Of a DNA stretch of 64,000 nt, positions 45,201-61,351 are shown piece after piece (within the stretch, counting starts at the first letter, position 1; every line of letters starts with the position of its first letter). The translations under genes were made by a program, and so were the position numbers. The stretch covers positions 262,292 to 326,291 of the IMG/VR virus record IMGVR_UViG_3300027804_002812, one strand, 5' to 3'. The notes beneath the pieces were generated by a model. It was given only the letters and a program-made list of their open reading frames with translations. It had not been told where the DNA came from and searched no databases. Origin of the DNA: a virus. Taxonomy: Duplodnaviria > Caudoviricetes.

Positions 45201-45861
45201 ACATAATATTCACGGGCAATATAATCTTGGGTGGTTTTATGATAACAATAGAGAACCTACCTTACCAAATACAATTCCGTTACAACAAGCTGCAACAAAT
45301 ATATTGGGGCTACCTTATAAAGAGATTAAACCAAGAATCTCTTATAAAATTCTCGAAAGACCTTATGAAGAAAAATATGTTACAATTGCCACCAACTCAA
45401 CCGCAGGATGTAAGTTTTGGACAAAAGAGGGATGGCAAGGCCTTATCAATTATCTTCATTCTCTCGGATATAAAGTTATCAATGTATCTAAAGAAAACAA
45501 TCGATTTGACAACTGTGAAAAAATAAAAGATACTGCAATGGATTATACAATGAATGTCATCCATCACAGTGAATTCTTCATTGGGTTATCCAGCGGATTA
45601 TCTTGGTTATCTTGGGCAATGGGTAAACACGTTGTGATGATTAGTAATTTCACAGAACCTGACCACGAATTTACTTCTAACTGTACAAGAATAACAAATC
45701 CAAATGTTTGTAACGGATGTTGGAATAGTCCTATATATAAATTTGATAAAGGAGATTGGAATTGGTGTCCAGTTCACAAAGGAACAAACCGACAATTTGA
45801 ATGTCATACATCAATAACACCAGAAATGGTAATAAATAAAATACAACACTTATTAATATGA
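42229..45861 (+). CDS. Four-domain enzyme: SAM methyltransferase + GT-A + GT-B (GT4-like) + TibC/Aah-like protein O-glycosyltransferase
   Basis: ILDVGPGVG (MTase); YVDSDS (DxD); ILFLAPHLSTGG...FNSTWECNPLV..EA (GT4); FDSSSLGDTVSWIPY...FIGLSSGLSWLSW..GK.VVMISNF...CNGCW...WCP...EC (Aah/TibC-like). Confidence 0.8.
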   Translation: MPESYKFFKEEVKNYLINNVSLSSKILDVGPGVGTYSELIRNFGYKIDCVEIWEPYVETYNLKEKYDNVFVGDIMDFDISNYDFIILGDVLEHLPKEQGMSLIQRIHKLGKQCLVAVPYQMEQGEHNGNIYETHHQSDLTIQLMTERYPELTMIYSNHYYGYYVSTEKITIGTKFEKSFVLYSTENYFDILTECVKSIREFSELPIIVYLINSDRQIEVPKTKTIRWDLQIDDLSDDLYLNHNNNFYIDRKNPTIYKILIQRPLIVKDALSKYSDTICYVDSDSIATPLVDTIFSYFNQTSNYPYFVEGIYEFLILNGIGVGGELNETLEHNACELFGVDQSVRKNYRQTGYFIAGQNTYDFLDEWYWMCNHPKILNNIGHYTPFNEETIANVLLWKYNIQEGLPYIYVNGTFDTINKMYNEVEYKGDGIRNFQGDWLRVPYHKEHLLFFHGEKKPETMRQMVEEIKKHNNVSEEIQVHSPESNSEKLRILFLAPHLSTGGMPAYLLKRIESLSLHYPFIEFFLAEFCQYSTLYTVQRDRIKEIVPEERFWTINTLNDHNVENSMKVIDLIKTHFIDIVHIDEMIEGFDSFNKVPDELKHALYDNNRTWRVVETCHNIWFDPESSKLFHPDAYALCTPYHLEKTFKKMPSHMEVFEFPIENRFRSRVEQVRAQEELGLDISKVHIINVGLWTSGKNQREGIEIAKHFEGGNVEFHFVGNQASNFESYWKPLMSDLPSNVRIWGERSDVDTFMKASDILMFNSTWECNPLVIREAASLGLKIIARDLPQYVGMFNGLITPLTDDIPTNVNNLRRLISSSRDYQILDGMTEEFAVKHYNLYKFLLTQEPRKKTKSNTKVQIKQFFINEPFLEIVGQSDSEYDVKFFDEFGVCNYHNTIKSNHWIKLNRKYFTKWNTKILEDKVLIYDETLNYESKRVFINFDSSSLGDTVSWIPYVLEFKNTHKCEVIVSTYWNHLFREAYPELEFVEPGSVVHNIHGQYNLGWFYDNNREPTLPNTIPLQQAATNILGLPYKEIKPRISYKILERPYEEKYVTIATNSTAGCKFWTKEGWQGLINYLHSLGYKVINVSKENNRFDNCEKIKDTAMDYTMNVIHHSEFFIGLSSGLSWLSWAMGKHVVMISNFTEPDHEFTSNCTRITNPNVCNGCWNSPIYKFDKGDWNWCPVHKGTNRQFECHTSITPEMVINKIQHLLI

Positions 45862-46532: not shown

Positions 46533-47338
46533 ATCAAACTACTTGGTACGTAATTTCTGAAGTTTGAATAAATGTGATTCAATAATGATTTTGAATAATT
46601 TTGATTGTGTTTCGGTCCCGGATGAATATTATCAACCGCATCATCTATGAATGACCCATATGTCCCATCAAACCTATTGAACTCATTATGTGTTGTAGGA
46701 ATACCCATCCATCCATTCCACAACCAATTACATTTTTTGGATTCTAAAAAATATTTTATTAAGAGGTGATTTTTATACCAATTCATAAAATCTTGATAAT
46801 CATTCTGAATCGTTGTTAAACTATGTTGGATTTCTCTTCCCTCTTCAGTTTCCTCTGTGTAACCCCACTGTGAAGTTATCATAAATGGTTCTAATCCTCC
46901 ATCTTTGGTGTATAGTTCTCTTCTTTGTGGAGAAGTATACATAATCAAAACTAAATCAGGTTTGATAAAATCATAATAAGTTATCAAACATCTTGATATG
47001 TAATCATTACTTCTCCCTCCCATACCAAAATTATGGTTTACTCCATTCGAAATTAATTTAGAAAATTGAGCCGGCCACGTTTCATCATTATTAACACCAA
47101 CCCCTTCTGTATTTGAGTCCCCAATACTCATTATCTTAAATCCGTCTTTATGAATAGAGTCTCCTCTGAACCCCAATTCATTATATGTATAGGTACATAA
47201 ACGAGTTTTGTCAGATCCAGATGTTTGATACGACTTGTTGACCTTCTCAGATAAATTCCATTTATAGCTCGAAATTTCAAATCCTTCAGGTGTCCAATAT
47301 TTCAAATTATCTACACAGGGGTAATAGGTTTGATTCAT
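46529..47338 (-). CDS. SGNH/GDSL-like hydrolase or O-acyltransferase-fold protein
   Basis: GDSNTEG, NFGMGGRSN, DNIHPG blocks. Confidence 0.7.
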   Translation of the reverse strand: MNQTYYPCVDNLKYWTPEGFEISSYKWNLSEKVNKSYQTSGSDKTRLCTYTYNELGFRGDSIHKDGFKIMSIGDSNTEGVGVNNDETWPAQFSKLISNGVNHNFGMGGRSNDYISRCLITYYDFIKPDLVLIMYTSPQRRELYTKDGGLEPFMITSQWGYTEETEEGREIQHSLTTIQNDYQDFMNWYKNHLLIKYFLESKKCNWLWNGWMGIPTTHNEFNRFDGTYGSFIDDAVDNIHPGPKHNQNYSKSLLNHIYSNFRNYVPSSLI

Positions 47339-48414
47339 TATATTAAAGTTTTAACAGGCGTAATAAATTCTTGTAGGTTACTCCAACTATAATTGTTTGG
47401 TAAGAAAGAATTAACTTCTTTTATAAATTCATTATACTCCGAATGAGATTCATTCCAAATTTGTTCTAATAAAAAATCCTCTTCACTAAATGTACCCCAA
47501 TTAGTTATCTTACCAAAAAACACATTTACCTTTTCACCAAAAATAGAATACATCAAATCGTAGAATAACTTCATTTCTTTATAATTTTTTTGTTGAACTA
47601 CAAATGAAGTTTTTATGGTCCTTAAAGTTGGTATTGTTGAAATAAACTTTAAGTTATCTAATAATATATCCCAATTGCCATTTATTCTTGTTTTTGTTTC
47701 ATAGGTTTCTTTAGTTCCTGCATCAACACTAATTTCACAACTTGTAACATATTGATGTATGTTCGGCATCGATTCCCACATTTCTTTAGTCCAACGTGTA
47801 GCATTAGTGTGTAAGTGAATTGATTTCAGTTTTGGCCATTTGGATTTATCAAAATTTCTTAAAAAATCTCTAAAACCAACTGACACAAATGGATCTCCAC
47901 TACCCGTTATATATAATGTATTCACCTCGTTTCCATATGCATCTTCAATATCTTGTATGTCTTGTTTTACTTTTTTTATTTTATTACTGTCCGCAATAAT
48001 CATATTTAATCGACATGAAGGACATTCAAGATTACAGCTCCTGTCCATTGAAAATTGTACTAACTGTGGCGAAGTTAATTTTCCTTCCTTATATTTTTTT
48101 ATTTTTATATCTAAATTAGAGCTTAATTTATCTTTGTGGTAAAGAGGATAGACTCTACCAACATCTCCAAAGGTTTTCAATTGATGTATAAACGGGCAAT
48201 GATTATGATCACAATATCTATATGACCCATCTAATATACTATCTCGAATATCATTTGCTTCTTCTGAATTCCATGCGTCGTATGGTTTAGTATTTTCAGG
48301 TAAAAATTTAGTTAACCATGACGCACAACATAAAAATCTTTGATGGTCATGAATTTCTATAGAAGTGAAGGGAACCGCACAAATATAATTTTTTAATAAA
48401 TTTTTTTTCACCAT
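47338..48414 (-). CDS. Radical SAM enzyme with N-terminal SPASM/twitch-like domain
   Basis: CAVPF...LCC...C..CP N-domain; CNLECPSC; TGSGDPF, HTNA, ISVDA. Confidence 0.85.
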   Translation of the reverse strand: MVKKNLLKNYICAVPFTSIEIHDHQRFLCCASWLTKFLPENTKPYDAWNSEEANDIRDSILDGSYRYCDHNHCPFIHQLKTFGDVGRVYPLYHKDKLSSNLDIKIKKYKEGKLTSPQLVQFSMDRSCNLECPSCRLNMIIADSNKIKKVKQDIQDIEDAYGNEVNTLYITGSGDPFVSVGFRDFLRNFDKSKWPKLKSIHLHTNATRWTKEMWESMPNIHQYVTSCEISVDAGTKETYETKTRINGNWDILLDNLKFISTIPTLRTIKTSFVVQQKNYKEMKLFYDLMYSIFGEKVNVFFGKITNWGTFSEEDFLLEQIWNESHSEYNEFIKEVNSFLPNNYSWSNLQEFITPVKTLI

Positions 48415-48471: not shown

Positions 48472-48921
48472 TTATAAAAAATTTCTTTGGCTTTCTACAT
48501 CAAGAGGATTATTCATCATAAACCCAATCAAAGTATACCTTTTTCCAACACAATTATTTACTCGATGGTATTCTTCTCCGCTAAAATATACCATATCTCC
48601 AACCTTTGGAGTGAATTCATTGTTGTCAAAAATAAGCTCACCTCCCGTAAAATCTTCATTAAGAAAAACAATGAAAGACCATGGATTATGATGCAAGTGT
48701 GGAATTTCAACCTGATTAATACTGTCATCCACCATTTGAACTCTGAACTTTTTGAAAGAAAAATTTGAGAACTTTTTTACTTCTAATTCTCTTCCCATTA
48801 AATCAACAAAATAAAATTTATAATATTCATCCCCATAATATTTTTTATCTTCATTGTGGAAAATATCCATGAAATAATTAATTTCATCAGAAGTTAAAAA
48901 AGATGGAATATATTTTATCAT
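48472..48921 (-). CDS. 2OG-Fe(II) oxygenase
   Basis: PHLH..WSFIVFLN..FTGGEL...HRV....GKRYTL. Confidence 0.85.
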   Translation of the reverse strand: MIKYIPSFLTSDEINYFMDIFHNEDKKYYGDEYYKFYFVDLMGRELEVKKFSNFSFKKFRVQMVDDSINQVEIPHLHHNPWSFIVFLNEDFTGGELIFDNNEFTPKVGDMVYFSGEEYHRVNNCVGKRYTLIGFMMNNPLDVESQRNFL

Positions 48922-48923
48922 TG

Positions 48924-49451
48924 TTAAAATAGTTTTGTTTCAGTTCCTAATTCTTTATAAGTTATAAAATAAACAAAAGAATATCGTGTACCTTTGGTGA
49001 TTTCGGTAACTTCATGAAGAACTTCAGAATCCATTTTATATAATAATCCCTTTTCTGTCGCCAACTTTCCATCAGGATTATAGGTGATAAGTTCACCTCC
49101 CTCAAAATCATCATTTAATTTGGCTCCAATGATTAAGGCCCAATCATTTTGTCTTTCTCTATCAACGTGTTTGGTAAATTTACCACCCGTAAAAAATTCA
49201 TGAGCATAAAAATAGTTGCCTTCTTTTATTTTATTGTTTGGATACTCGTCTTTCAAAAAATCAGAAATCAAATCGAAAAACCATTGTGTCGACTCTTCTC
49301 GTTTGACTTCACAAATATTATAATCTAATCTAGATTTATGTAATCCCGCAGGTGAACAAACATCAGGGCAATATCTAACATTAGATTTACCAAAATAGGA
49401 AATCCATGATATTACTTCGTCACACTGCTCATTTGTCAATTTCATAATCAT
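48924..49451 (-). CDS. 2OG-Fe(II) oxygenase (prolyl-hydroxylase-like)
   Basis: KHVD...LN.DFEGGEL...HEV..ITKGTRYS. Confidence 0.88.
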   Translation of the reverse strand: MIMKLTNEQCDEVISWISYFGKSNVRYCPDVCSPAGLHKSRLDYNICEVKREESTQWFFDLISDFLKDEYPNNKIKEGNYFYAHEFFTGGKFTKHVDRERQNDWALIIGAKLNDDFEGGELITYNPDGKLATEKGLLYKMDSEVLHEVTEITKGTRYSFVYFITYKELGTETKLF

Positions 49452-49993
49452 TATATAATTTGTTGAGGTATCATTAAATCACTTTTTTTCACCCAAAATA
49501 CCATAGAGTATCTTACACCTTCAGTAACTTCACTAACCCAATGTGGTATTTTTGAGTCAAAACTGATACAATTTCCTCTTGAGGAGTTAGCAATATAATC
49601 TTCAAACATCAAGTCACCCCCTACATAAGATCCATGTTCAGACAATTGGATAATATACGACCTATATCTTTCCCCTCTTTCCTTGTCACCAGAATCATAA
49701 TTAAGAACATTATTATCCCTATGAACAGGGAAAGAATCTCCAACGACATATTTCCTTACCAATAAGTTATGAACCTGTTCTTCATTTGAGAATGTAAATG
49801 GTTTTAGATTCAACTCAGGAAAGATAGAAAAAAACTCTTCGGGTATATCTTCGTGTGATACTAGCCCTTCTTGCCCACATTTACCATATCTCCTCCCCCT
49901 TTCAATAACATCCAAAACTCCACTTTCAAAGTATTGAATGAAATAATCACACAAACTATGACTCAATAAAATTTTTTCTTCAATTGATTTCAT
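49451..49993 (-). CDS. 2OG-Fe(II) oxygenase (prolyl-hydroxylase-like)
   Basis: HRD...YVGGDL...PHWV..VTEGVRYSMV; likely start MKSIEEK at 49993 (ATGA overlap). Confidence 0.88.
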   Translation of the reverse strand: MKSIEEKILLSHSLCDYFIQYFESGVLDVIERGRRYGKCGQEGLVSHEDIPEEFFSIFPELNLKPFTFSNEEQVHNLLVRKYVVGDSFPVHRDNNVLNYDSGDKERGERYRSYIIQLSEHGSYVGGDLMFEDYIANSSRGNCISFDSKIPHWVSEVTEGVRYSMVFWVKKSDLMIPQQII

Positions 49994-50571
49994 ATGATTT
50001 GTTTCTCTATTTGTTTTTGATTGAGTATATCGATACAAAAACTTCCAGCATAAACTATCCTCTTTTTTTCCGAGTTTGGAGTCGGTATTGCAGTATGTCG
50101 TATGTCTGCTGGAAATATAAATATATCCCCAACTTCAGGTAAAAATTTATATCTTTGTTTATTTTCGTCTTCAAATACTATACATCCTTCATCCCCACTT
50201 ATTTCATCTGTTGTCTGTAAATAAAACGTGAAAGTATAATCTGTTAAAATATTTGACCTACCAGAAGGATGAACTTGAATGTGTTGATGCATCCATTCTA
50301 AATTGAACCCTTTTTTTTGAGTATACACCCAATAATGTTGAGCATAATTGGTGAATTTTTTATTAGATATATTCTCTATTTGATTTTTAATATATGAATT
50401 TATCGATTGAAAACACTCCGTTTCTATTTCTATCCAAACAGAATTATCATTGGTATGTGTTGCCATTCCATCATTTAACTCAACATATTTCAAAAATTCA
50501 TCAATAGAATACTCATTATTGTACTTCCCTTTATATATTGTGAACTTTTCAGATAACTTTATTGGCGTCAT
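49990..50571 (-). CDS. Putative 2OG-Fe(II) oxygenase (TIGR02466-like)
   Basis: MHQH...FYL...G.I.F...PEVGDIFIFPADIRHTA.P...RIV. Confidence 0.8.
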   Translation of the reverse strand: MTPIKLSEKFTIYKGKYNNEYSIDEFLKYVELNDGMATHTNDNSVWIEIETECFQSINSYIKNQIENISNKKFTNYAQHYWVYTQKKGFNLEWMHQHIQVHPSGRSNILTDYTFTFYLQTTDEISGDEGCIVFEDENKQRYKFLPEVGDIFIFPADIRHTAIPTPNSEKKRIVYAGSFCIDILNQKQIEKQII

Positions 50572-51170
50572 ATGATAGATGTTGGTGACTTGAATTTTAT
50601 AATACCATCTCCCTTTACGAAAATTCCATTCTTAAAATAAGTCCAGTTAATCGTATGAATTGGAGTAACTATTTTTGTAAATTTATGTGGGTCAATCTTA
50701 TATTCATAATAATTCAACTCACTTTGTTTTCTAAATGTAAAATAATTAAAAATCGATAAAATACAATTATCATTAGCAATAGTTTTACAATAATCTTCAA
50801 ATTTTTCGTAATTGATATCGTCATGTGTATCCATGAATATTCCATCAAATTTTTGATTAAGTTTTGGGATAACCTCCACCCAATCTCCAAATATAATGGT
50901 TACATTTGATTTGTTTTTAGCCCAATTTTGAGCTTTTTCATAAATCTGAGGATTAATTTCAATACAGGTATAATGATTAGCTAAACTACTCATTTTGTTT
51001 GCAGAAAATCCCATACCAAAACCAACATCTAAAACGTTACCCCCATTTTGACAAACTATATATGAGTACATTTCCATCAAAGATTTTGATGCAGAATCCA
51101 TAACAATAGATCTCGGGTTATTCTTAAAATGAATATTTTTATCCGTAAAAACGACTACTTCATCTTTCAT
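50568..51170 (-). CDS. Class I SAM methyltransferase, RMT2/guanidinoacetate-methyltransferase-like
   Basis: VMD....LME, GGNVLDVGFGMG, CIEINP, GDW, FDGIFMDT. Confidence 0.75.
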   Translation of the reverse strand: MKDEVVVFTDKNIHFKNNPRSIVMDSASKSLMEMYSYIVCQNGGNVLDVGFGMGFSANKMSSLANHYTCIEINPQIYEKAQNWAKNKSNVTIIFGDWVEVIPKLNQKFDGIFMDTHDDINYEKFEDYCKTIANDNCILSIFNYFTFRKQSELNYYEYKIDPHKFTKIVTPIHTINWTYFKNGIFVKGDGIIKFKSPTSII

Positions 51171-51182
51171 GTGTATTATACA

Positions 51183-51614
51183 TTATAGTAAATCTTTTTT
51201 ATTAAAACGCTCGTATCTCCCATAATTACTCAATAATTCTTCGCCCTTATATATTATTCGGTTAGTAAGGAATGTGTCCTTATCTATGTTGGACTTATCG
51301 AATCCACTATTAATAAAGTAGTATGGTGTAGTATAAATCCAATGGCATCCTTTTGTCAACTTTACATAGGTACGGTTATCTGACGGAAAATCAGGTCCAT
51401 ATAAAAATATGTCTTTGATATGAGTATAAAGTTCGTTAGGTAATAGAAGTAATTCAGATTCTAATATTGGATACAAACCTGTTTCTCCATTCCAAACTTC
51501 AAATGGATTAATTTGAGATGGAATGTCTTTGATTGCAAATACACCAATTCCTTGGACTCTACTTGGTTTTAACCTTACAAAAATTTTGGTAGATATATAC
51601 TCGAAGGGAGTCAT
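51183..51614 (-). CDS. SET domain protein
   Basis: LKPSRVQGIGVFAIKDIP, YFINS (NH motif altered), I.KGEELLSNYG. Confidence 0.8.
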   Translation of the reverse strand: MTPFEYISTKIFVRLKPSRVQGIGVFAIKDIPSQINPFEVWNGETGLYPILESELLLLPNELYTHIKDIFLYGPDFPSDNRTYVKLTKGCHWIYTTPYYFINSGFDKSNIDKDTFLTNRIIYKGEELLSNYGRYERFNKKDLL

Positions 51615-51757
51615 TACATATGCTTTGCAATAAACAATTCAAAAAACTTGGCAACTGTTTGATTGACTTGTGTTTTTTCAGTTTGACTTAAAGCACTTGT
51701 TTTTCTTGTCTCAACTTGAGACATAGTTACTTTCTTATATAATGATGGATTTGTCAT
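51614..51757 (-). CDS. Unannotated 47-aa peptide between the ATP-grasp/Hint gene and the SET gene
   Basis: MTNPSLYKKVTMSQVETRKTSALSQTEKTQVNQTVAKFFELFIAKHM*; starts 7 nt after the upstream stop, and its TAA overlaps the SET ATG (TAATG). Confidence 0.75.
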   Translation of the reverse strand: MTNPSLYKKVTMSQVETRKTSALSQTEKTQVNQTVAKFFELFIAKHM

Positions 51758-51764
51758 GTTTTTA

Positions 51765-54020
51765 TTATTTATTGTGAACTAAAATTTTATTTGCAAAAAA
51801 GTTATGATTTTCCGAAACACTTAATAGATTGTAAACAGTATGTGAGCTTACATCTTCTTTAACACTAATAATGGTTATATCAGTTTTATCATCTTTAATA
51901 CATACATCACCTTCTTGAAGATTTTTCGCTTCAACCCAACCTTTTTCTTTTACGAAGAATGGATGTTCAGGAGTTGTAGTTAATAATGTCGTATCATCAA
52001 ATACCAAATCAATAACATCTTCAACATTATGTATTTTCAAATCACCAACAATACCTAATTCAGTTTCTCCAGTCAATTCATTATAAGTAAGAACTTTTTC
52101 CCCAACAACAACATCTTCAATATTTTTGTATTCTCCATCAAGTAAAGTTATTTTGGTACCCGCAACAAAACAACGATTGTGTACTAATCGATTGTTTGCA
52201 AAAAAGTTATGGTTGTTTTCCACTACTTTTACATTATAAACAATTACTGCCTCTGAAATAATATCAATTGATTTAATAAGGGACTCTGTACCATCTTCCT
52301 TAAGGATTTTAATTCCGACTTCAGCTTGTCTAGTGGTCAACCCATAAACGTTAAGTGTATACTTAGGGTCTTGTGATATCCAACCGATTTGACGTGAATA
52401 AATTGGGTGGTCCAACGTTGACTCCAAAATTGTATCATCCTCGAATGTATACTTTACTGTTTTGTCAACTTTTCTAGAACCAACACCTCTAACTTTTTGT
52501 TTTTCAACCATAGAGGTATTAAAATTATAAGATAAAACTACATCACCAATTTGAATATTTTCAACATTTTTTTGTGTTTTATCTTCCAAAGTTATTTTTG
52601 TACCAGCAACAAAACAAGGTGCGTTATGTGAAATTACTCCGTTGAATGGTGTTGACCCACTAATAATATAGGTATCAGTATCTTCAGCGTCAAGTTCTAC
52701 TAATTTCAAACTAGTATCCGTAGTGACATAAAAATTGACCTCATCGATCCCAATCAAATCGCCATCGATGTCATACAAATAATCAACTTCAGGTCTCAAA
52801 TAAACGGAAAGTTTATATTTGGAAATGTTTGTGGAAGAATCATAAACTAAAAAGTGTTTATTTGCCCCGATAAATTTAGATTCTGAATCAACCACGATTT
52901 CAACTAACCCCCCATACTTCAATTGTTTCTCATCCTTAAAAACAACTTCAGATGTAGTCATATAAGACCCTTCGGGAAAATATTGTCCTTCAAATGTCCA
53001 ATTCATAATTTCTGAATTTATTTCAACTTGAGGAGACCCTGAAATGAAAAACGATTTAATAAATTCTCCGACACCAACATCTGCAATCGGCTTATACTCC
53101 TCATCCTCCATTAAAATTTGATGAGTTGACAATAGTCCACCACAATCCAATTTTATGAAATTTGTGGTGTATTCATAATAATGATGGTCAGATATTTTAT
53201 TAACATATTGAGTATCATCAACTTCAGATTGAATACTGGTTGGCAATTCGAATATTGAGCTAATCTTATAATTGTGTAATGTAATTATATCTAAATTACC
53301 TCCATACACAATATGAAAACTTCTAACCGAGATGATATGATCATCCTCATCTAAACTAGAAGGCCCATAATGATATTGTTGAATAATTTTATTTTCGGTA
53401 TTTATTGAACTTAAAAAAGATGCCCATCTGTCCTCGTCACTTTCACCTTCAACAGTAGAACCTATTTTATAAAAATCTATTGGATTGAATTGTTCAATCA
53501 TGTCCTTAACCGCAACATCAGGGACATTTGGTGAATTAATTATTGAATCTAAACTATTGTTAGATTCTGTTGAGGACGAATAAAAGTACGAAACTACTTT
53601 GGATGATTCATTATTTGACGTAAATAAATTAAGAAGTTCTACAGTACCTTTACAATAGGTACTATCAAAAAGTGCAGACTCGTCATAAGCCAATCTCAGT
53701 ATAAATTTATCACTTGAGTCAGGAATCGTCGCAGGATAAATTGTATTAATATCTTCATCATGTAAATTTATAACCGTAACAAATGGTGCGTCAGCAGTTA
53801 TAGTATTTGAAATATGAGTTACAATTTTATCATGAATGAAAGGCTTATATACAATATCAAGTTGAGTAATGTTATTTGTCTGAAGTACACTTATAAATTC
53901 GGTAAAATCGAAATTATATAATTCATTACCAACGATACTTGTATCGGTGTTAAACTCCAATAATCTTAAATTATCATTCGTGTCTTTAACAAAGTCAGCC
54001 GAAAATAAAGTTCCTTTCAT
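51765..54020 (-). CDS. Circularly permuted ATP-grasp ligase fused to three tandem Hint domains
   Basis: N-terminal SADF...LLEFNTD (D9/E22/N24), AVK, IIQQY, SVR; Hint1 about G295-N466, Hint2 C469-N615, Hint3 C617-N750, then K751. Confidence 0.8.
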   Translation of the reverse strand: MKGTLFSADFVKDTNDNLRLLEFNTDTSIVGNELYNFDFTEFISVLQTNNITQLDIVYKPFIHDKIVTHISNTITADAPFVTVINLHDEDINTIYPATIPDSSDKFILRLAYDESALFDSTYCKGTVELLNLFTSNNESSKVVSYFYSSSTESNNSLDSIINSPNVPDVAVKDMIEQFNPIDFYKIGSTVEGESDEDRWASFLSSINTENKIIQQYHYGPSSLDEDDHIISVRSFHIVYGGNLDIITLHNYKISSIFELPTSIQSEVDDTQYVNKISDHHYYEYTTNFIKLDCGGLLSTHQILMEDEEYKPIADVGVGEFIKSFFISGSPQVEINSEIMNWTFEGQYFPEGSYMTTSEVVFKDEKQLKYGGLVEIVVDSESKFIGANKHFLVYDSSTNISKYKLSVYLRPEVDYLYDIDGDLIGIDEVNFYVTTDTSLKLVELDAEDTDTYIISGSTPFNGVISHNAPCFVAGTKITLEDKTQKNVENIQIGDVVLSYNFNTSMVEKQKVRGVGSRKVDKTVKYTFEDDTILESTLDHPIYSRQIGWISQDPKYTLNVYGLTTRQAEVGIKILKEDGTESLIKSIDIISEAVIVYNVKVVENNHNFFANNRLVHNRCFVAGTKITLLDGEYKNIEDVVVGEKVLTYNELTGETELGIVGDLKIHNVEDVIDLVFDDTTLLTTTPEHPFFVKEKGWVEAKNLQEGDVCIKDDKTDITIISVKEDVSSHTVYNLLSVSENHNFFANKILVHNK

Positions 54021-54076: not shown

Positions 54077-54619
54077 CTACAAAAGGGTCTTGCCCTTAGA
54101 AGTTGTAGTTCTCGAAATACAAATGTGAGTTAGTTCCAAACTTTGCGGTAATTTTAACTGAAAATCGATAACATCGTATATTTCAGAAAAATTAACCTTA
54201 TTAAAACCAACTCTTTTATTGTGTTCCAAAGTATTCGGATATAAATTAACAATTCTCACTTTTTTATCGAGATTTGAATTAATCATCTTCAAAGAGGATT
54301 GTTGTAACTTTAACTTACTTTCCCGATAATCGTCAAAACTTCCATTATTAAAAATGGCCGATGTCAGAATGTTGAAAATTGTCTTATCCTTGTATTTCCA
54401 CTGGTCGAAAAGTTCTTCGAATATTTTCTGTTGGTAACTCGGATGATAAGTATTATTTATGAAAACATCTAAATCAACAACATCATTCAATATTTTTTCG
54501 TAATTTTTCAAGTCATATCCATTACTTCTTGAAAATCCGATAACTTCATGATTTTTTCCCAACAAATCAAACAACCCTTTTCCTAAGAAATCACTGTGTC
54601 CTGTTATTCCTATCCTCAT
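54077..54619 (-). CDS. Short SDR-type NAD(P)-dependent oxidoreductase
   Basis: IGITGHSDFLG, FINN, YRESK (YxxxK). Confidence 0.75.
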   Translation of the reverse strand: MRIGITGHSDFLGKGLFDLLGKNHEVIGFSRSNGYDLKNYEKILNDVVDLDVFINNTYHPSYQQKIFEELFDQWKYKDKTIFNILTSAIFNNGSFDDYRESKLKLQQSSLKMINSNLDKKVRIVNLYPNTLEHNKRVGFNKVNFSEIYDVIDFQLKLPQSLELTHICISRTTTSKGKTLL

Positions 54620-55128
54620 ATCAAACTAACTGGTTCTTTGATATTTTCCTTGAATAAAAATATTATTAGTGAATATCTAATCCCATTTTCAATTTTGGTC
54701 ACCTCGTGTTCTCTAGTATTTCTGAAAGAATATATCGTCCCCGCTTTTTTCGGAATAATCTCTTTCGGTCCATACAAAATAAAATCACCTCCATCATAGT
54801 CATCATTCAAACAAACTCCGACATTTAATTTTTGATTAGGATAGTATATATCACTATGTCTTTCAAATTGATTTCCGGACTCGTATTTGTGTAAATGTAT
54901 TACTTCAAACGGTTTGACTATTTCAACATTCTCATCTAAAAGCAAAAATTCAGTTATTTTATCAAAAATCCAAGAGACATTTTCATTTCTAAAAATGTTG
55001 TAATACGTATATGTTATTTTTTCTCTTGGTCTTTCAACATGTATACTATTTGCATCTCGATGAGTACCTTCAATTTCTTGAGTTAATTTTATTATCTTAT
55101 CACACTCTTCTTTTGAAAACGATACCAT
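54616..55128 (-). CDS. 2OG-Fe(II) oxygenase (prolyl-hydroxylase-like)
   Basis: RHSD...LNDDYDGGDF...HEV..IENGIRYSL. Confidence 0.88.
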   Translation of the reverse strand: MVSFSKEECDKIIKLTQEIEGTHRDANSIHVERPREKITYTYYNIFRNENVSWIFDKITEFLLLDENVEIVKPFEVIHLHKYESGNQFERHSDIYYPNQKLNVGVCLNDDYDGGDFILYGPKEIIPKKAGTIYSFRNTREHEVTKIENGIRYSLIIFLFKENIKEPVSLI

Positions 55129-55164: not shown

Positions 55165-55281
55165 TTAATGGTTGTAAATAAAAGGGTCTCTCTTTTTCAA
55201 CTCTTCAATTTTCTTTTTTAATTCTTTTTTCCTTTTGCGGTCTTTAATTTTTTTCAAAAACCAGTCAATAATTTTCTTCAT
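55165..55281 (-). CDS. Small basic 38-aa 'KRDPFIY' protein
   Basis: MKKIIDWFLKKIKDRKRKKELKKKIEELKKRDPFIYNH*; start overlaps the carbamoyltransferase stop (ATGA). Confidence 0.7.
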   Translation of the reverse strand: MKKIIDWFLKKIKDRKRKKELKKKIEELKKRDPFIYNH

Positions 55282-56945
55282 AGTATTTTGTGTATTATAT
55301 AATTATCTAAAACTAACAAGTCCAAGTCAGTATCCTTGAAAGTTTCTATTGCATTAAACGGATTCAGTACCATTGTTTTATCTTTAACGTTGAATGATGT
55401 ATTCAATATAATTGGATACCCACTTAGTTTTTCAAACTCAATTAATAAGTCGTGAATAACAGTATTTTCATATACAGTTTGAATTCTTGACGTTCCGTCC
55501 ACGTGAACAACTGCCGATAATTTATCTGCGTATTCTTCTCTAACTTTAACAATTTGATTCATGTATGGTACATCATCAATTGTGTAGAAAAACTCATTCT
55601 GTTTCTCTTTAATAACCATAGGGGCAAAAGGACGAAACCCCTCTCTTTTCTTAATCAATTTATTAATTCTGGATTTCATATCGGGTACAGTAGGGTCGGC
55701 TAAAATAGACCTGTGTCCTAATGCTCTTGCTCCGAATTCGATTCTATCTCTATACCACCCAACTACTTTACCTTCATGGATTTTTTTGGCTACGTATTTT
55801 ATTAATATATTGTAATCGTGAATTTCAAAAAAGTTCAAATTTTTAATGTGACCCATATAAAATTCAACATCATACTTTGGTCCCAAAAAAGGATTCTTGG
55901 TAACTCTTTTTGTTAATTTTTTATTTTGTACAAGGTAATGAATACAAGCTCCAACACAGGATCCAGCATCAGATGGTGCGACTGGTATCCAAATTTTTTC
56001 AAACTCAGAATTGGATACTATCTTCCCATTCGCAGTACCATTGTACGCCGAACCACCTCCTAAGCAAAGATTATTACTACCAAGATTTTTCAAACTTTTG
56101 ATAATATCAAATAAAACTTCTTCGTATCTTAGTTGAACTGCCGCTGCTAAATTTTGATGAATTGTAGTAATTTCTTCTTCAGTTAATCTTGGTGAAATAC
56201 CTAAATGTTCTATTAGTTTTTCGTTGAACATCAATTTTTCTGACTTATCCCAACAAAAAACATCCATATCACAGATTAATTCTCCATCTTTGAATTCTAT
56301 TAAACTTCTAATTTTTTCAATATACTCTTTAGGGTCTCCGTATGACGCTAATCCCATTAATTTATATTCTCCTTCATTTGGTTTGAATCCCAAATACGAA
56401 GTCATTGTAGAATAATAAAGTCCTAATGAATGTGGATATTTACCCAAATCATGATATTCAATTCCATCATTATCCGCCAAACCAAAAGATAATGTGTCAA
56501 TTTCACCAACACCATCAATAGATAAACAGATTGCCCTTTCAAAATCGGAAGTGAAAAAAGAATAATACTGATGTGCCAAATGGTGTTCGGAGTAAAATAC
56601 TCTTCCCTTAAATGGCTTCAAATGTTTATTTACATCTGATATATTTTTTAAGATTTTAACTAAAGATTTCAAAGAATATTTCGGTGACGTAAAAAAGTTT
56701 TTCTTGATGTTACTCAATACTCTTTTTAGTTTCAGATTGAGGTCTTCATAATAACAAACCATTTCAATATCATCATAGGTTATGTTATAATATCCGAAAA
56801 TATGTTGAATCGTATTAATTGGAAAAGAACTGTCGTGTTTGATTCCCGTAAATTTTTCCTCTTCACAAGCAAACACCAACTCCCCGTTTTTGAATAGACA
56901 GGCGGATGAATCGTGATAAAAGGATGAAATGCCAAGTACGTACAT
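55278..56945 (-). CDS. NodU/CmcH-family carbamoyltransferase
   Basis: LGISSFYHDSSACL, EEEKF, HHLAH, DGVGE, SLGLYY, GEYKLMGLASYG, EFGARALGHRSILADP, FRPFAP, LNTSFN. Confidence 0.95.
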   Translation of the reverse strand: MYVLGISSFYHDSSACLFKNGELVFACEEEKFTGIKHDSSFPINTIQHIFGYYNITYDDIEMVCYYEDLNLKLKRVLSNIKKNFFTSPKYSLKSLVKILKNISDVNKHLKPFKGRVFYSEHHLAHQYYSFFTSDFERAICLSIDGVGEIDTLSFGLADNDGIEYHDLGKYPHSLGLYYSTMTSYLGFKPNEGEYKLMGLASYGDPKEYIEKIRSLIEFKDGELICDMDVFCWDKSEKLMFNEKLIEHLGISPRLTEEEITTIHQNLAAAVQLRYEEVLFDIIKSLKNLGSNNLCLGGGSAYNGTANGKIVSNSEFEKIWIPVAPSDAGSCVGACIHYLVQNKKLTKRVTKNPFLGPKYDVEFYMGHIKNLNFFEIHDYNILIKYVAKKIHEGKVVGWYRDRIEFGARALGHRSILADPTVPDMKSRINKLIKKREGFRPFAPMVIKEKQNEFFYTIDDVPYMNQIVKVREEYADKLSAVVHVDGTSRIQTVYENTVIHDLLIEFEKLSGYPIILNTSFNVKDKTMVLNPFNAIETFKDTDLDLLVLDNYIIHKIL

Positions 56946-57472
56946 TATGAATTATATTTTTCAGGATATTCGTTAATTAAGGTTATCCCTCCCTCATTTA
57001 TTGCATGGTCATAAGCGTTTTTAACATCATCCGCAGTCAAACAATCAAAAAATTTTATTGTTTGAGTTATTGACTGAAACTCTTTGAAATAATTATTTCT
57101 GTGTTGAGGGCCTGGATTCAAAGGTATTTCCGATCCTTTACCAACTCTAATAATCATATTTGGTTTCCACTGACCATTGCTCATTAATTCCATCTTATCA
57201 ACATGGTTTATTAATTGATTAGCCGCACAAATCAAAAAGTCCCATCTCGGATAAAATGTAATCACAAATTTTCCTGTCATTGCAATACCCAAAGACATTC
57301 CCATTTGAGAATCTTCCATCACCGGTAATTCAACCATTTTTTCTTTTGGAACATCGACCAAAGTTGAACTCATCGGGTTTCCCGGAAATAATATCTGTTG
57401 TCCAAGAAAAATAGTATCATCCATTTTTCCTAACTTGGTCATTGCGATTGTTAATGAATCTTTGTATTCCAT
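56945..57472 (-). CDS. TPP-dependent E1-beta/transketolase pyrimidine-binding domain (no C-terminal domain)
   Basis: IFLGQ, ELPVME..QMGMSLG.AM.G, DFLICA.NQL.NH, GPQH; only 175 aa. Confidence 0.8.
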   Translation of the reverse strand: MEYKDSLTIAMTKLGKMDDTIFLGQQILFPGNPMSSTLVDVPKEKMVELPVMEDSQMGMSLGIAMTGKFVITFYPRWDFLICAANQLINHVDKMELMSNGQWKPNMIIRVGKGSEIPLNPGPQHRNNYFKEFQSITQTIKFFDCLTADDVKNAYDHAINEGGITLINEYPEKYNS

Positions 57473-58668
57473 TATATTAAACTTTTGAAAAACTTATAAT
57501 CAGTTTCATCTTGTAATATACTCGTAACTTTTTTCTTATTAAGTTCAAATCTTTCCTGATTATTTTTATAAAAATTAATTATTTCGTCTTTGATAGAATT
57601 TAATCTTTTCACTTCATCAACAAACATAAAAAGCCGTTTTCTCGGGTCTTTTTCATTGTCATAAGAATAATCAATAATATCATCAAACAAATCAAAATCA
57701 TATCTTTCTTTCAAGAACTTATTATGTTCAAAATTAGCCAATATCAAAGGAATTTGAGAATAATAAATTGGCATCAATGATTTTTCTGTAATATGGATTA
57801 CATCTGTGGATATGTAACCAGTTTCGGTAACAATATTAACATATGAATTTCTATAAGGATTCATTTCATATGTTTTATAAAAGTCAATGAAGTAAGGTGG
57901 CTGGTCAACTCTATAATCTTCTTCAAACCTACTTTTTTTAATCCCTGATTTTTGAAGAAACAATATTTCATTATAATATTCTTTGAAATCGTCCCTATCA
58001 AAAACTTCAAAAAATAAGTTGTATGATGGTGTTCCATCTGGATCAGAGAATCGTTCGTTTAATTCATTACCTCGTAACATCGTCCAATCAACTTCATCTA
58101 ATATCCCTTCTCGTTTCAGTAAAGCTAACAGAGACACTCTATGTGGTTTTAACATTCTGTTATAACACATAAAAAATGATTCTTTATCTTTTTGAAATTC
58201 GTACTTGAATGAGGTCATTCCTTCGACCGCCACATAAGGTAATCTATTTGAAGTATGTCCAACAACTTTACTATTCAACTCATTGATTAATTTTTTTATT
58301 TTCTGATTTCCATTGATTGCAATTATCTGATTCGAATTAATCGATTCTTCATTACAATATTTTTCGATAAGTTTTATTACGTTTCCATTGTCGGACTCAT
58401 GTTCCGCTAAAATAACAAGAAAACAATTGGAGTATAATTTCATTAACTCTTTTACTTTTGAGGATGCAGGAAGTGATTGGAAATTTTCCATATAAGTTCC
58501 TGTTATTGTAAATGAATAATATTTTTGTTCGGAGTCAACCTCAAAATTATTTATATCAATCATTTTAATCCCGTCAACTTTGTTAGCGGTCAAAGTGTTA
58601 AAAATATGTTCCTTTTCGTTTTCGATATTACTATCAAACAATAAATTAAAATACTTCATAATCTTCAA
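57472..58668 (-). CDS. Putative GT-B glycosyltransferase (GT10-like TEK motif)
   Basis: YNR..KPHR..LL; YVNIVTET...ITEKSLMPI...IPLIL; FDLFDDIIDYSYD. Confidence 0.5.
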   Translation of the reverse strand: MKIMKYFNLLFDSNIENEKEHIFNTLTANKVDGIKMIDINNFEVDSEQKYYSFTITGTYMENFQSLPASSKVKELMKLYSNCFLVILAEHESDNGNVIKLIEKYCNEESINSNQIIAINGNQKIKKLINELNSKVVGHTSNRLPYVAVEGMTSFKYEFQKDKESFFMCYNRMLKPHRVSLLALLKREGILDEVDWTMLRGNELNERFSDPDGTPSYNLFFEVFDRDDFKEYYNEILFLQKSGIKKSRFEEDYRVDQPPYFIDFYKTYEMNPYRNSYVNIVTETGYISTDVIHITEKSLMPIYYSQIPLILANFEHNKFLKERYDFDLFDDIIDYSYDNEKDPRKRLFMFVDEVKRLNSIKDEIINFYKNNQERFELNKKKVTSILQDETDYKFFKSLI

Positions 58669-59298
58669 TTAAAATACAACCCACTTACCTGTTCCATAAT
58701 GAGGCCAATGTTTTTCATACTCGTAGTAAACTACTTCATTAGGTATTTCCTCTTTTTTGCCCCATGTTTCGATTGTTGGAGTATTTGTAGAAACTCCATT
58801 ATCTTCAACAACAAATCTAACAGGTAATTCAAAGTTTTTTATATATTTGTAGTTTTCCATAAAAGTACCTGTCTCAAAAGTCATGTCCCCAATAAAACAC
58901 CAAACAATTTCATTCTTATTATCTCGTTTATTAGACATTGCAACGCCAGTAGCAATTGGAATTATTCCACCGACAATCGCCGAACTATAGAATTTTTTTT
59001 CTTTATTGATGATACTAATCGATCTCCCATCCAAAATTTCTGATTCTAACCAATCAGGTGATACTCCTTTAAGTAAAGCATGATAATGAGACCTCCATGT
59101 AGAAAATACCCAATCATTCTCTGAAATTCTTTTGAAGATTTCAATAAGATGTTTTTCATTACCTCCACTCAAATGAACAGGGCCTCGTATTTTACCAGTT
59201 TCCCAACTTTCAACTATTTTATTTTCAAAATGAATAAGTTCTTCTTCATTCCAGTTGTGTTCTCTAACTATTGGATACTGTTCTAAATTTTTTATCAT
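58669..59298 (-). CDS. TPP-dependent E1-alpha-like subunit (short)
   Basis: GPVHLSGGNE, STWRSHYH, SAIVGG, GDMTFETG...EDNG TPP-binding motif; 209 aa. Confidence 0.85.
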   Translation of the reverse strand: MIKNLEQYPIVREHNWNEEELIHFENKIVESWETGKIRGPVHLSGGNEKHLIEIFKRISENDWVFSTWRSHYHALLKGVSPDWLESEILDGRSISIINKEKKFYSSAIVGGIIPIATGVAMSNKRDNKNEIVWCFIGDMTFETGTFMENYKYIKNFELPVRFVVEDNGVSTNTPTIETWGKKEEIPNEVVYYEYEKHWPHYGTGKWVVF

Positions 59299-59312
59299 AT
59301 ATTTTAATAAAA

Positions 59313-59924
59313 TTACTTGTTAAAGGATACTATACTAAACCTTGGCGTTTTCGCATAACTTTCAACTGAACTTACAAAATGAGGTTGTCTGAAAACTTTA
59401 TTATTCAATAATACTACTCTATTGAATTTAGGAAAAATTTGTTGGTTAAACTCTTCATCTGCTTCAGAACAAATGTTAAGAATACCACCCCAATCCCAAA
59501 TCCACTCTTTATTTACGTAATAGATTAAATTAATTTTTCCTGCATAGTCATCCATGTGCATTCTGTAATGGTCTCCACTATCAAGTTTATAACATCTTAT
59601 GTCAAACTGATTCAAGATAAATGGTGATACTTTTTCAAGGGCATCAATAAAGTAATCTTCGAATATTTTCGATATGTAATCATCTTTCTCCAAATCAGAT
59701 GACCTACTGAAACTAGAAGTATAAACCTCGGTTTCTTTTGGTAATGTTGATGACTCAGTTTTGAATACATGCGAATAATGATTTTCTCTTTCCTGTAAAG
59801 TTTTTTCCCACGTGTTCGCATTAACAAATAACTCATGTAAATTATTTGCATAATCATTGGGTAAAAAATTATCGATTACAGAATATCCCTGTTCGTTCAG
59901 TTCCTGTTTAACTCTATCTAACAT
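59313..59924 (-). CDS. 2OG-Fe(II) oxygenase (EGLN/prolyl-3-hydroxylase-like)
   Basis: HMD...[14 protein letters not shown]...PKFNR...HFVS...RFS. Confidence 0.88.
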
Positions 59925-59934
59925 ATTAACTTAG

Positions 59935-60342
59935 TTACTCCCAACTAATACCCCAATCCTTAAACTCCGCAGCCAAACAATCAGTTTTATAGTCTTTTCT
60001 ACCACCTACAATTTCTTGTATTCTATTTTTTGCAGTATTACGAACTCCATTTAATCCATGTGTCAACTCCAAATTATTACCTTCTTTGATTCCCTTACGA
60101 TAGTTGGACTCATTATGCCAAATGTGTAAGTTTGTTTGAGCTAAAACAACAATAGACCTTACGGTCTTTGCATCAATAACACCTTTCTGTTCTTTAAGAA
60201 TCAAATCAATGTCGTGTTCGATGTCTCTAATTTCTTGAGCATATTCCTCTTTGTGTTCGGGAATAAAAACTTCTTTTAATTGTGAAATACTGAGTCTATC
60301 AATTAACTCGGCAAGTGTTGGTAAGTATTTTCTCTTCTCCAT
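59935..60342 (-). CDS. Conserved helical protein of sugar-biosynthesis clusters (DUF6165-like)
   Basis: PTLAELIDRLSI.QLK...N..IW..E...R....N..RN..KN.I pattern. Confidence 0.6.
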   Translation of the reverse strand: MEKRKYLPTLAELIDRLSISQLKEVFIPEHKEEYAQEIRDIEHDIDLILKEQKGVIDAKTVRSIVVLAQTNLHIWHNESNYRKGIKEGNNLELTHGLNGVRNTAKNRIQEIVGGRKDYKTDCLAAEFKDWGISWE

Positions 60343-60343
60343 A

Positions 60344-61351
60344 TTATCTGTTCAAAAATTTTCTTCCTTTATTTATTCTTTCTCTCCAATATTCTAATAG
60401 GTCATCCATTGTTTGATTGAAGGTTATTTTGGGTTCCCATCCAGTCATTTCTCTGAATTTAGTTGTGTCAGGTATTTGTAAATCCGCATCTATGGGCCGT
60501 AATCTATTTTGGTCAACTACTACTTCTATATTCTTAACCGTAGATTTTGATAATAGATAATTCAACGTATCACCAACTTTACAAGTATAAGACCCCCCAA
60601 TATTATAATATGCACCTGCAGATGGATTAATATTTAATAACATCCAGTATGCTCTGACAGCATCCCTAACATCGGCGTATGTCCTAAGTGAGTCCAAATT
60701 ACCCACAAATATTTTTGGTTCTTGTAATCCATATTCTATCATTGCGATTTGTTTTGCAAATGTTGATTCATGAAATACATCTCCTCTTCTCGGTCCTGTA
60801 TGTGTAAACATTCTGGTAGTCATCACCTTCATGTTATAAGCTTCCCCATAATACCGACCAATCAAATCTGTACCCACTTTAGATATCGCATACGGAGATG
60901 CAGGATGTAACGAGCACTCCTCATTGATGGGTAATTTATCTTTACTAACCCTACCAAAAATTTCGCTTGATGCACACACATGTATAAGAGCATCTTTATA
61001 CTGAGATTTTCTAAGCGCTTCTAATAAATTTGCGGTACCAATTATATTTGTTTGTAATGTTTCAATCGGAGAATCAAAACTAGTTTGTGGATAGGATTGT
61101 GCTCCAAGGTGGAAAACATAGTCAGGTTTAGAAATATCTATCGCGTTTACAATTGAACTATAGTCATTCAAATCTCCATATATCAACTTAATTCTATCTG
61201 TGGTATTAATGATATCAGTTAAATGTTCGATGTTATCCATAGATTCATTCCACCTACAAAACCCATAGATTTTTATAGTTGTTTTTTCTAAAAGAAAATC
61301 AACCATGTGAGATCCGACCATCCCTAAAACACCTGTGATTAATACATTCAT
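60344..61351 (-). CDS. gmd: GDP-mannose 4,6-dehydratase family
   Basis: LITGVLGMVGSH, HLGAQS, SSEIFG, SPYAISK, FTHTGPRRG.VF, RDAVRAY, LRPID. Confidence 0.85.
   Translation of the reverse strand: MNVLITGVLGMVGSHMVDFLLEKTTIKIYGFCRWNESMDNIEHLTDIINTTDRIKLIYGDLNDYSSIVNAIDISKPDYVFHLGAQSYPQTSFDSPIETLQTNIIGTANLLEALRKSQYKDALIHVCASSEIFGRVSKDKLPINEECSLHPASPYAISKVGTDLIGRYYGEAYNMKVMTTRMFTHTGPRRGDVFHESTFAKQIAMIEYGLQEPKIFVGNLDSLRTYADVRDAVRAYWMLLNINPSAGAYYNIGGSYTCKVGDTLNYLLSKSTVKNIEVVVDQNRLRPIDADLQIPDTTKFREMTGWEPKITFNQTMDDLLEYWRERINKGRKFLNR

Follow-up and report, generated by a model that had tools for sequence, protein, structure and literature searches.

A viral ATP-grasp-like protein carrying tandem Hint domains and encoded beside a conserved 47-residue peptide

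The stretch of DNA analysed here, called the window in the following, comprises 64,000 nucleotides of a giant marine phage of the Caudoviricetes (Duplodnaviria; IMG/VR record IMGVR_UViG_3300027804_002812, positions 262,292 to 326,291) and represents the final 64 kb of this 326-kb viral record, which is rated complete by CheckV. The record encodes a T4-type gp23 capsid protein; psbA is absent from it. We investigated one open reading frame (ORF) of the window in which a domain predicted to be a circularly permuted ATP-grasp ligase is followed by three Hint domains separated by one or two residues, together with a small ORF located directly 3' of it and the genes surrounding both (Table 1). In the literature searched we found no description of a fusion of ATP-grasp with Hint, intein or bacterial intein-like (BIL) domains in phages, of the small peptide, or of the gene cassette. 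The component parts come from known families. An earlier reading of the locus, made from the sequence alone (the sequence-only reading), had likewise considered the architecture undescribed.

Table 1. Coordinates of the ORF under study, its domains and the neighbouring genes in the window
Feature	Position	Strand	Remarks
Whole ORF: permuted ATP-grasp, Hint1, AP, Hint2, R, Hint3, K	51765..54020	-	751 aa
Predicted circularly permuted ATP-grasp, GspS/YgiC type, residues 1-290	53151..54020	-	structure, motifs, conservation
Hint1, residues 295-466; Gly1, no TxxH, E446/D449 and H465-N466 conserved	52623..53138	-	fold, hidden Markov model, conservation
Spacer 1, Ala467-Pro468	52617..52622	-	
Hint2, residues 469-615, type-A BIL-like: Cys1, TLDH, HN	52176..52616	-	Pfam, conservation
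Spacer 2, Arg616	52173..52175	-	
Hint3, residues 617-750, type-A BIL-like: Cys1, TPEH, HN	51771..52172	-	Pfam, conservation
Terminal Lys751	51768..51770	-	93/93 two-Hint relatives
Conserved 47-aa partner peptide	51614..51757	-	synteny, predicted complex
SET-like 143-aa protein	51183..51614	-	Pfam SET E 0.066; homologue in 24/86 loci
S-adenosylmethionine (SAM) methyltransferase, 200 aa, weakly PIMT-like	50568..51170	-	
Four tandem 2-oxoglutarate (2OG)-Fe(II) oxygenases	48472..50571	-	near core gene in most of 86 loci
Radical SAM enzyme, twitch-domain type	47338..48414	-	in 43/86 loci
180-aa Rossmann-like protein and fifth 2OG oxygenase, upstream	54077..55128	-	

Since residue 1 of the relatives aligns to residue 1 of the protein and the ATG is preceded by only six open codons, we regard the N-terminus as genuine: the start (MKGTLFSADF...) corresponds to aligned residue 1 in nearly all full-length relatives. 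A truncated or split gene as the source of the N-terminal motif described below was ruled out on the same grounds. A search of GenBank phages, from which the virus's own or very close genome records may have been excluded, returned no DNA matches, and the Hints alone matched (intein-type); no cultured relative was therefore seen. None of the Pfam, NCBIfam and PHROG models matched residues 1–468, which comprise the ATP-grasp domain, Hint1 and spacer 1 and are called the core in the following. Prediction of the whole protein with AlphaFold2 (AF2) from the single sequence reached a predicted local distance difference test (pLDDT) score of 30. We used instead a model of the core built from an alignment of 130 diverse core modules, designated A1, which reached a pLDDT of 93.3 and a predicted template modelling score (pTM) of 0.89. 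All conservation counts out of 130 given below refer to A1.

The model shows residues 1–290 as a minimal circularly permuted ATP-grasp domain, resembling the acid-amine ligases of the GspS/YgiC type and with the putative metal- and ATP-binding residues intact. In a structure comparison with VIA, residues 1–288 scored Z 9.7 against both YgiC and a GSS-like effector, Z 8.9 against GspS, Z 8.6 against the CP-ATP-grasp 3n6x and Z 8.1 against Cp1B, with eukaryotic glutathione synthetases lying within Z 8.1–9.7. Foldseek matched the core model to YgiC with E 1.6e-5. For the permuted enzymes the alignment is collinear and begins with model residue 1 (YgiC 94–379, GspS 311–608), whereas canonical ATP-grasps (ArgX/LysX, RimK, TTLL) reach Z 5.5–6.5 and their alignment starts only at residue 47–52, a pattern that marks the permutation. 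At the sequence level hhalign placed A1 positions 8–71 on YgiC 101–163, where the motif LLExNxDT is common to both (E 0.0012, probability 19%). The sequence-only reading had located a metal-binding D...ExN motif at the extreme N-terminus and assigned the domain to the permuted ATP-grasps, and both proposals are borne out: D9 and E22 are invariant, N24 is present in 129/130 sequences, and the position of the start codon is confirmed. D119 is invariant as well, R109 is found in 129/130, R233 in 128/130 and K172 in 125/130 sequences, and K59 is conserved to at least 90%. As in YgiC, YjfC and GspS, the Mg-binding hairpin thus comes first in the chain and the similarity is collinear over residues 1–288. 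In contrast to YgiC and GspS the phage protein is shorter by about 90 residues at its N-terminus, lacks a match to Pfam GSP_synth, is fused to Hint domains, is accompanied by a dedicated small peptide and occurs in viruses only. YgiC and YjfC are peptide-spermidine ligases joining an amine to peptide carboxylates, according to their RefSeq name and to the account of Pederick 2023 given in PMC12568646.

Residues 292–468 of the model adopt a Hint fold. They superimpose on the Clostridium (C.) thermocellum BIL with VIA Z 19.8 (root-mean-square deviation 1.4 Å over 138 residues) and match Tetrahymena BIL2 with VIA Z 18.8 and Foldseek E 5e-10. The A1 profile also matched the BIL2 sequence (E 1e-5), and a hidden Markov model built from the canonical Hints of the family covers residues 296–466 end to end (i-E 5.5e-6). 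The model thus shows Hint1 as a Hint fold without N-terminal nucleophile and block B which has retained the C-terminal Asn. Position 1 is Gly295 in 122/130 sequences and a conserved TxxH is absent, as seen by the sequence-only reading together with the terminal HN and a Cys two residues upstream. This Cys293 is not conserved across the 130 relatives; it was rejected as a displaced nucleophile of Hint1. With Gly at position 1, no conserved TxxH and no conserved Cys293, Hint1 is probably unable to form a thioester. N466 is present in nearly all relatives, Hint-less ones included, and variants of Hint1 ending in YN, SN or RN retain the Asn. Judged from these residues, Hint1 keeps what is required for C-terminal Asn cyclisation.

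Hint2 and Hint3 are recognized by Pfam (PT-HINT 1.3e-20, Intein_splicing 1.7e-12, as well as Vint and Hint_2). Their closest solved sequences are Tetrahymena BIL2 for Hint2 (E 5e-11) and the C. thermocellum BIL for Hint3 (E 1.5e-10). The three Hint folds and their junctions SHN|AP|CF (N466/C469), VHN|R|CF (N615/C617) and VHN|K-stop are as described by the sequence-only reading, and the catalytic residues are C469, TLDH and H614-N615 in Hint2, and C617, TPEH and H749-N750 in Hint3. The residues at +1, Arg616 and Lys751, provide no nucleophilic Cys, Ser or Thr, and R or K is found there in relatives. Because they combine Cys1, TxxH and terminal HN with the lack of a +1 nucleophile, Hint2 and Hint3 appear to belong with the type-A BILs such as the C. 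thermocellum BIL (PDB 2LWY). They differ from these in being arranged in tandem with spacers of 1–2 residues at the extreme C-terminus of an enzyme and in their strictly basic +1 position; BILs have been described from variable bacterial surface or secreted proteins, not phage enzymes (PMC4031507). The sequence-only reading assumed that no splicing takes place without C, S or T at +1, which does not hold for this class. Type-A BILs mainly undergo cleavage, but their flanks can be ligated when a freed amine attacks the thioester (PMC4031507). Tetrahymena BIL2, the closest solved relative, makes an isopeptide on the epsilon-amine of Lys, and other proteins become conjugated to its N-extein (PMC8616854).

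BIL2 (PDB 6TMM/6Y75), which is part of the polyubiquitin-like BUBL locus of Tetrahymena and is the best sequence and Foldseek match to the phage Hints, also lies in an array of autoprocessing Hints with short modules between them, and a Lys amine resolves its thioester (PMC8616854). BUBL spacers are ubiquitin-like and the reaction is ATP-independent, whereas the phage protein carries spacers of 0–2 residues and a fused, putatively ATP-dependent ligase; a Pfam scan of the 751-aa protein detected no Ubl domain, its spacers being AP and R. With mini-inteins the phage Hints share the Hint fold and blocks A, B, F and G. They differ by the absence of a +1 Cys, Ser or Thr and of a homing endonuclease, and by their position in a terminal tail instead of an insertion in a host domain. 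They are thus no canonical inteins, as +1 is R and K and the Hints lie beyond the end of the conserved core.

A 47-aa ORF, which falls below the ORF cut-off of 60 aa, lies 3' of the ligase gene. A homologous ORF of 44–53 aa was found 0–100 nt 3' of the ligase gene in 83/86 related loci, Hint-less ones included. The 62 unique partner sequences carry a Tyr-Lys near the N-terminus and end in K-F-x-x-Y/L-F-K-x-K-H followed by exactly one residue. A predicted complex of the core with the peptide scored an ipSAE of 0.89, compared to 0.02 for the best control; the ipSAE mark is reached by 58/80 solved complexes and 2/110 mismatched pairs, but is only a rough guide here, where our own alignments were used. 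The peptide is predicted to bind across both core domains, contacting the metal-ligand strands, residues 117–142 (the most conserved motif) and residues 224–257 of the ATP-grasp domain as well as residues 297–299, 370–383, 406–410 and 427–438 of Hint1. Synteny and predicted complex point to the conserved 47-aa peptide as most likely the substrate or partner of the ligase. At L004:9647-9925, in the most distant locus examined (L004; loci and relatives are given by our own L and P numbers), a 92-aa CxxC...CxxC zinc-ribbon-like protein replaces the small partner ORF.

Around the ligase and its peptide lies a conserved gene cassette, which encodes SET-like, methyltransferase, 2OG-oxygenase and radical-SAM proteins (Table 1). 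At the position of the SET-like protein L004 encodes a called SET domain, and some loci carry two copies. A carbamoyltransferase is located upstream of the ligase in 20/86 loci. The counts of these enzymes over the 86 loci were obtained by single-sequence searches and represent lower bounds. The methyltransferase at 50568-51170 showed sub-threshold likeness to protein-L-isoaspartate O-methyltransferase (PIMT) and to the methyltransferase family of ATP-grasp peptide maturases. A likeness of the isoaspartate type is of interest beside an Asn-cyclising Hint. A small peptide gene beside an ATP-dependent amide ligase and tailoring genes is also known from LysW-LysX/ArgX, RimK-S6, Pup-PafA and graspetide clusters. 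ArgX/LysX, RimK and TTLL give the best structural matches among canonical ATP-grasps (Z 5.5–6.5). The analogy to these pairs is a functional one alone. The phage ligase groups with the permuted GspS enzymes, and any modification of its peptide would be hypothetical. The 47-aa peptide resembles neither LysW nor Pup nor the leaders of microviridins. The ligase is not of the RimK/microviridin type, and graspetide models gave a single sub-threshold match to a methyltransferase.

To determine the distribution of the family, a word-indexed search of 90%-identity clusters was carried out, in which 8000 candidates were scored and 909 proteins found; an exhaustive search yielded 263 representatives at 50% identity. 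The family is large and almost confined to viruses, and neither a name nor a publication was found for it in the literature searched. IMG/VR contains 119 loci, and ESM Atlas clusters, all of them viral, commonly include a Hint-less form of about 490–500 aa. Among 185,579 cellular genomes a single match was obtained, on the 2.8-kb contig CAYNGR010000277.1 (L007) of a Cyanobium metagenome-assembled genome (MAG). This contig is probably a phage fragment and gives at most a weak hint at the host.

Architectures and spacers were determined for 219 full cores, where Hint number refers to the Hints following Hint1 and ranges from 0 to 3, with two in the protein of the window. Two Hints are the most frequent arrangement (93), followed by one Hint (47), one Hint plus a Vint-type domain without HN (36; Pfam Vint 28–38 bits), no Hint (17), three Hints (9), a Vint-type domain alone (5) and two Hints plus a Vint-type domain (1). 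In the remaining 11 Hint1 ends in YN, SN or RN, which placed them outside the classes of the script; 10 of these carry two or three Hints. On a tree of the cores at least 56 changes of architecture are needed, compared to 113 with shuffled labels. In about 40 relatives (for example P0012, P0080 and P0138) the C-terminal ~140 aa form a Vint-type Hint, which possesses Cys1 and the block-B His but no HN. By analogy with Hedgehog such an end should go no further than the thioester, whose resolution would require an external nucleophile. Hedgehog and Vint proteins also carry a C-terminal Hint on a cargo protein; in contrast to Hedgehog, the phage protein lacks a sterol-recognition region and the copy of the window contains HN-type Hints only.

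Spacer 1 is AP in 100 relatives, SP in 25, NP in 7, A in 6 and GP in 2, and it is missing in 17. In addition there are about 30 unique forms of 2–57 residues, some of them aromatic/Gly-rich and some Cys-rich. Spacer 2 begins with R (77/93 two-Hint relatives), sometimes with K (7/93) or xR, followed by 0–29 residues. The lengths of 1–2 residues reported by the sequence-only reading thus hold in this lineage. Tails of Hint-less relatives are short, often with Lys as the last residue. The distant relatives P0239, P0246, P0258 and P0268 (loci L004 and L006) carry 27–57 Cys-rich residues between the Asn of Hint1 and the next Cys1, or a Cys-rich tail, which measures 30–50 aa in distant members. From their sequences these peptides look like released disulfide-rich or metal-binding peptides.

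The catalytic residues of the Hints are almost perfectly conserved. Of 291 canonical copies, 290 carry Cys1, 289 the Thr of block B and all of them its His, and the terminal HN is found in 93/93 two-Hint members. Selection on the catalytic ends, which the sequence-only reading had proposed, is therefore visible at the protein level. Its own argument was the near-identity of the 30 nt with which Hint2 and Hint3 open, where only three synonymous differences occur. This count is correct (27/30 identical) but no sign of selection: at least 7/10 identical codons are expected from local codon usage alone with P = 0.088, and we dropped the nucleotide identity as evidence. Hint copies within one protein are only 23–46% identical, and between proteins the identity at the same position exceeds that across positions in 79% of pairs, from which we conclude that the duplication is an old one and that its copies were kept. 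Ratios of nonsynonymous to synonymous substitution rates (dN/dS) were taken from pairs with a proportion of synonymous differences (pS) of <0.55 in the ATP-grasp domain, saturated pairs being uninformative. Over the whole domain orthologous Hints show a dN/dS of ~0.05–0.2, similar to the enzyme domains. Among L047, L057 and L058 the proportion of nonsynonymous differences (pN) in the Hints is 0.05–0.07 at pS ~0.5–0.66.

Hint modules are at the same time exchanged by recombination, as near-identical cores carry unrelated Hints: L059 and L060 differ by pS 0.03–0.05 in the core and by pN 0.38 and pS 0.57 in the Hints, and comparable mosaics were found for L073/L079, L086/L081 and L016/L037. The protein of the window is 86% identical to that of L008 over residues 1–468. 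In this comparison Hint1 is the most conserved part (pN 0.028 compared to 0.12 in the ATP-grasp domain), and pS amounts to ~0.75–0.78 in ATP-grasp and Hint1 and ~0.56–0.57 in Hint2 and Hint3, suggesting a mosaic history even in this close pair. In L008 a TGA (L008:9161-9163) interrupts Hint3 at codon 721 with the remaining Hint in frame beyond it, which is due either to an error in sequencing or to a nonsense mutation of recent origin.

Our tentative reading, to which we give a little less than an even chance, is that the gene product serves as the catalytic subunit in a peptide-ligase module of the phage and that its C-terminal Hints form an appendage which processes itself and can be exchanged. 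The ligase would form an ATP-dependent amide on the 47-aa partner peptide. By analogy with the peptide-spermidine ligases YgiC and YjfC the likeliest site would be the C-terminus of fixed length, the alternative being the conserved Tyr-Lys. The neighbouring SET-like, methyltransferase, 2OG-oxygenase and radical-SAM enzymes would tailor the product. Hint1 may cleave at Asn466. The exchangeable part beyond this residue would consist of 0–3 type-A BIL-like Hints (two here), sometimes with a Vint-type Hint as the last domain. Most likely these Hints process themselves through an N-S acyl shift and cyclisation of the Asn, and as in BILs this could lead to self-excision or to joining of the flanks by amine attack. 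The outcome would be a short Lys-terminated tail (...HN-AP-R-K), resembling the tails of Hint-less relatives. If the Hints autoprocess to such a tail, the spacers of one or two residues would represent parts of it and not defined aminoacyl donors. A spliced tail of this kind, which is hypothetical, would be short and Lys-terminated like those found in Hint-less relatives, and this likeness suggests that the Hints lie inside an ancestral tail, just ahead of its conserved Lys.

Several points weigh against a ligase module with a self-removing appendage. Assignment to the ATP-grasps leans on a predicted structure, one motif-level profile alignment and conserved residues; residues 1–300 were matched by none of the models of Pfam (GSP_synth and CP_ATPgrasp included), NCBIfam and PHROG, although hits up to E 1 were admitted, and a scan of the entire genome with PF03738 gave no match. 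The complex with the peptide is a prediction from a small alignment of our own. Because the predicted contacts 8, 10 and 23 flank the metal ligands and do not include them, the peptide may be a structural subunit instead of a substrate. Furthermore, if Hint1 severs everything downstream, self-removal fails to explain why Cys1, TxxH and HN are near-perfect in Hint2 and Hint3, and the same gap concerns the core-like dN/dS of the Hints (~0.05–0.2) and the terminal Lys (93/93). The chemistry of Hint2 and Hint3 probably serves some further purpose. The strictness with which the Hint chemistry and the terminal Lys are kept, even though Hint1 alone could discard the array, keeps alive the models of acyl donation, conjugation and peptide release, which are weighed below.

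An unlikely alternative, though the best of those considered, is that the extra Hints are neutral or selfish, that is, degenerate mini-inteins or BILs which duplicate and recombine in a tolerant tail and remove themselves. This would agree with the labile copy number of 0–3, the exchange of Hints between near-identical cores (L059 vs L060), the TGA stop in Hint3 of L008 and the frequency of Hint-less forms. Neutral passengers would, however, hardly be expected as old, positionally orthologous copies of only 23–46% identity within a protein, with a whole-domain dN/dS matching that of the enzyme domains. The catalytic residues and the Lys at +1 are conserved to ~100% even in the last Hint, which Hint1 or Hint2 could remove, and no homing endonuclease is present.

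Rather improbable in our view is a platform acting like BIL2, in which the Lys or amine of a target (the partner peptide, a virion or a host protein) attacks the Hint2 thioester and the ligase core or tail becomes covalently attached without extra enzymes, the C-terminal Lys being a built-in nucleophile for splicing. By sequence and structure the closest solved relatives are indeed BIL2 and the C. thermocellum BIL, and BIL2 is able to link its N-extein to other proteins and to form isopeptides on Lys-epsilon (PMC8616854). In the phage family the terminal Lys is present in 93/93 two-Hint relatives, the Lys of the partner peptide is conserved, and the predicted contacts on Hint1 include residues 297 and 299 near the junction. 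Against this, position +1 inside the array is mostly occupied by Arg, which is a poor nucleophile, cyclisation of the Hint1 Asn would separate the core from the thioester, and Hint-less relatives lack the route while retaining everything else.

We are slightly more doubtful of the model put forward by the sequence-only reading, according to which the Hint array dispenses ribosomally encoded, thioester-activated units (Ala-Pro on Cys469, Arg on Cys617 and free Lys), allowing tRNA- and non-ribosomal peptide synthetase (NRPS)-independent assembly beside the ligase; a Lys of the partner peptide could serve as the acceptor. Cys1, TxxH and HN are kept almost perfectly over 291 copies although Hint1 could remove all of them, the first and last Hints are old and positionally orthologous, and a candidate acceptor is present in the form of the partner peptide. 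Among the sequences of the close subfamily 134/~190 have x-Pro as spacer 1, spacer 2 begins with Arg and the end is Lys. Acyl transfer to Lys has moreover been reported for BIL2 (PMC8616854). However, spacer 1 is missing in 17 relatives and replaced by 2–57 unrelated residues in ~30, and spacer 2 comprises 1–30 residues. Because Hint number (0–3, with at least 56 architecture changes) and spacers vary in this way among relatives, with spacer 1 ranging over 0–57 residues, fixed Ala-Pro and Arg donors are unlikely. Hint-less relatives keep ligase, peptide and cassette alike. A protein molecule would turn over once and deliver one unit from each spacer; ATP-grasps can activate carboxylates unaided, and an ATP-dependent ligase has no need of pre-activated donors. 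A broader version, of equally slight probability, sees a virus machine for peptide assembly or tagging. Ligase-Hint1 would hold the 47-aa scaffold while swappable Hints deliver activated micro-peptides and the neighbours tailor the product. The micro-peptides (Ala-Pro, Arg and Lys here, Cys-rich ones in relatives) would be activated as thioesters or amines and either joined to the scaffold or cyclised. If true, this would be ribosome-templated peptide chemistry without tRNA or NRPS.

The tail itself is very unlikely to be the product, with Hint1 freeing its N-terminus and a downstream Hint leaving a C-terminal thioester for cyclisation or ligation as in split-intein circular ligation of peptides and proteins (SICLOPPS), to give cyclo(Ala-Pro) from the present protein and Cys-rich peptides from distant family members: x-Pro thioesters are prone to diketopiperazine formation, the terminal Asn of Hint1 is essentially invariant and distant relatives carry Cys-rich spacers of 27–57 aa or tails of 30–50 aa, but 17 relatives have no spacer, some tails consist of a single Lys, one small molecule would be made per 751-aa protein, and the conserved ligase and partner peptide would be left without a role. 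A role as N-degrons of the residues at +1, which are R/K/L/F/Y behind the first Hint, was considered and set aside, as it leaves the invariant terminal Lys unexplained.

By the literature searched, the peptide-ligase module that we tentatively favour would be the first pairing of ATP-dependent amide ligation with the thioester and Asn-cyclisation chemistry of Hint domains. It offers a testable way into the 2OG-oxygenase, SET and radical-SAM genes of marine phages, which lack assigned roles. The compact natural tandem of BIL-type Hints with minimal flanks and basic +1 residues may also provide parts for protein engineering. Should the Hints prove to deliver activated peptides, the module would make peptide products by a new route.

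On both sides of the cassette the window encodes further enzymes. At 55278-63469 on the minus strand and 42229-45861 on the plus strand we observed a carbamoyltransferase, split thiamine pyrophosphate (TPP)-dependent E1-like subunits, a GDP-mannose dehydratase and epimerases, as well as a protein of 1210 aa combining a methyltransferase with a double glycosyltransferase.

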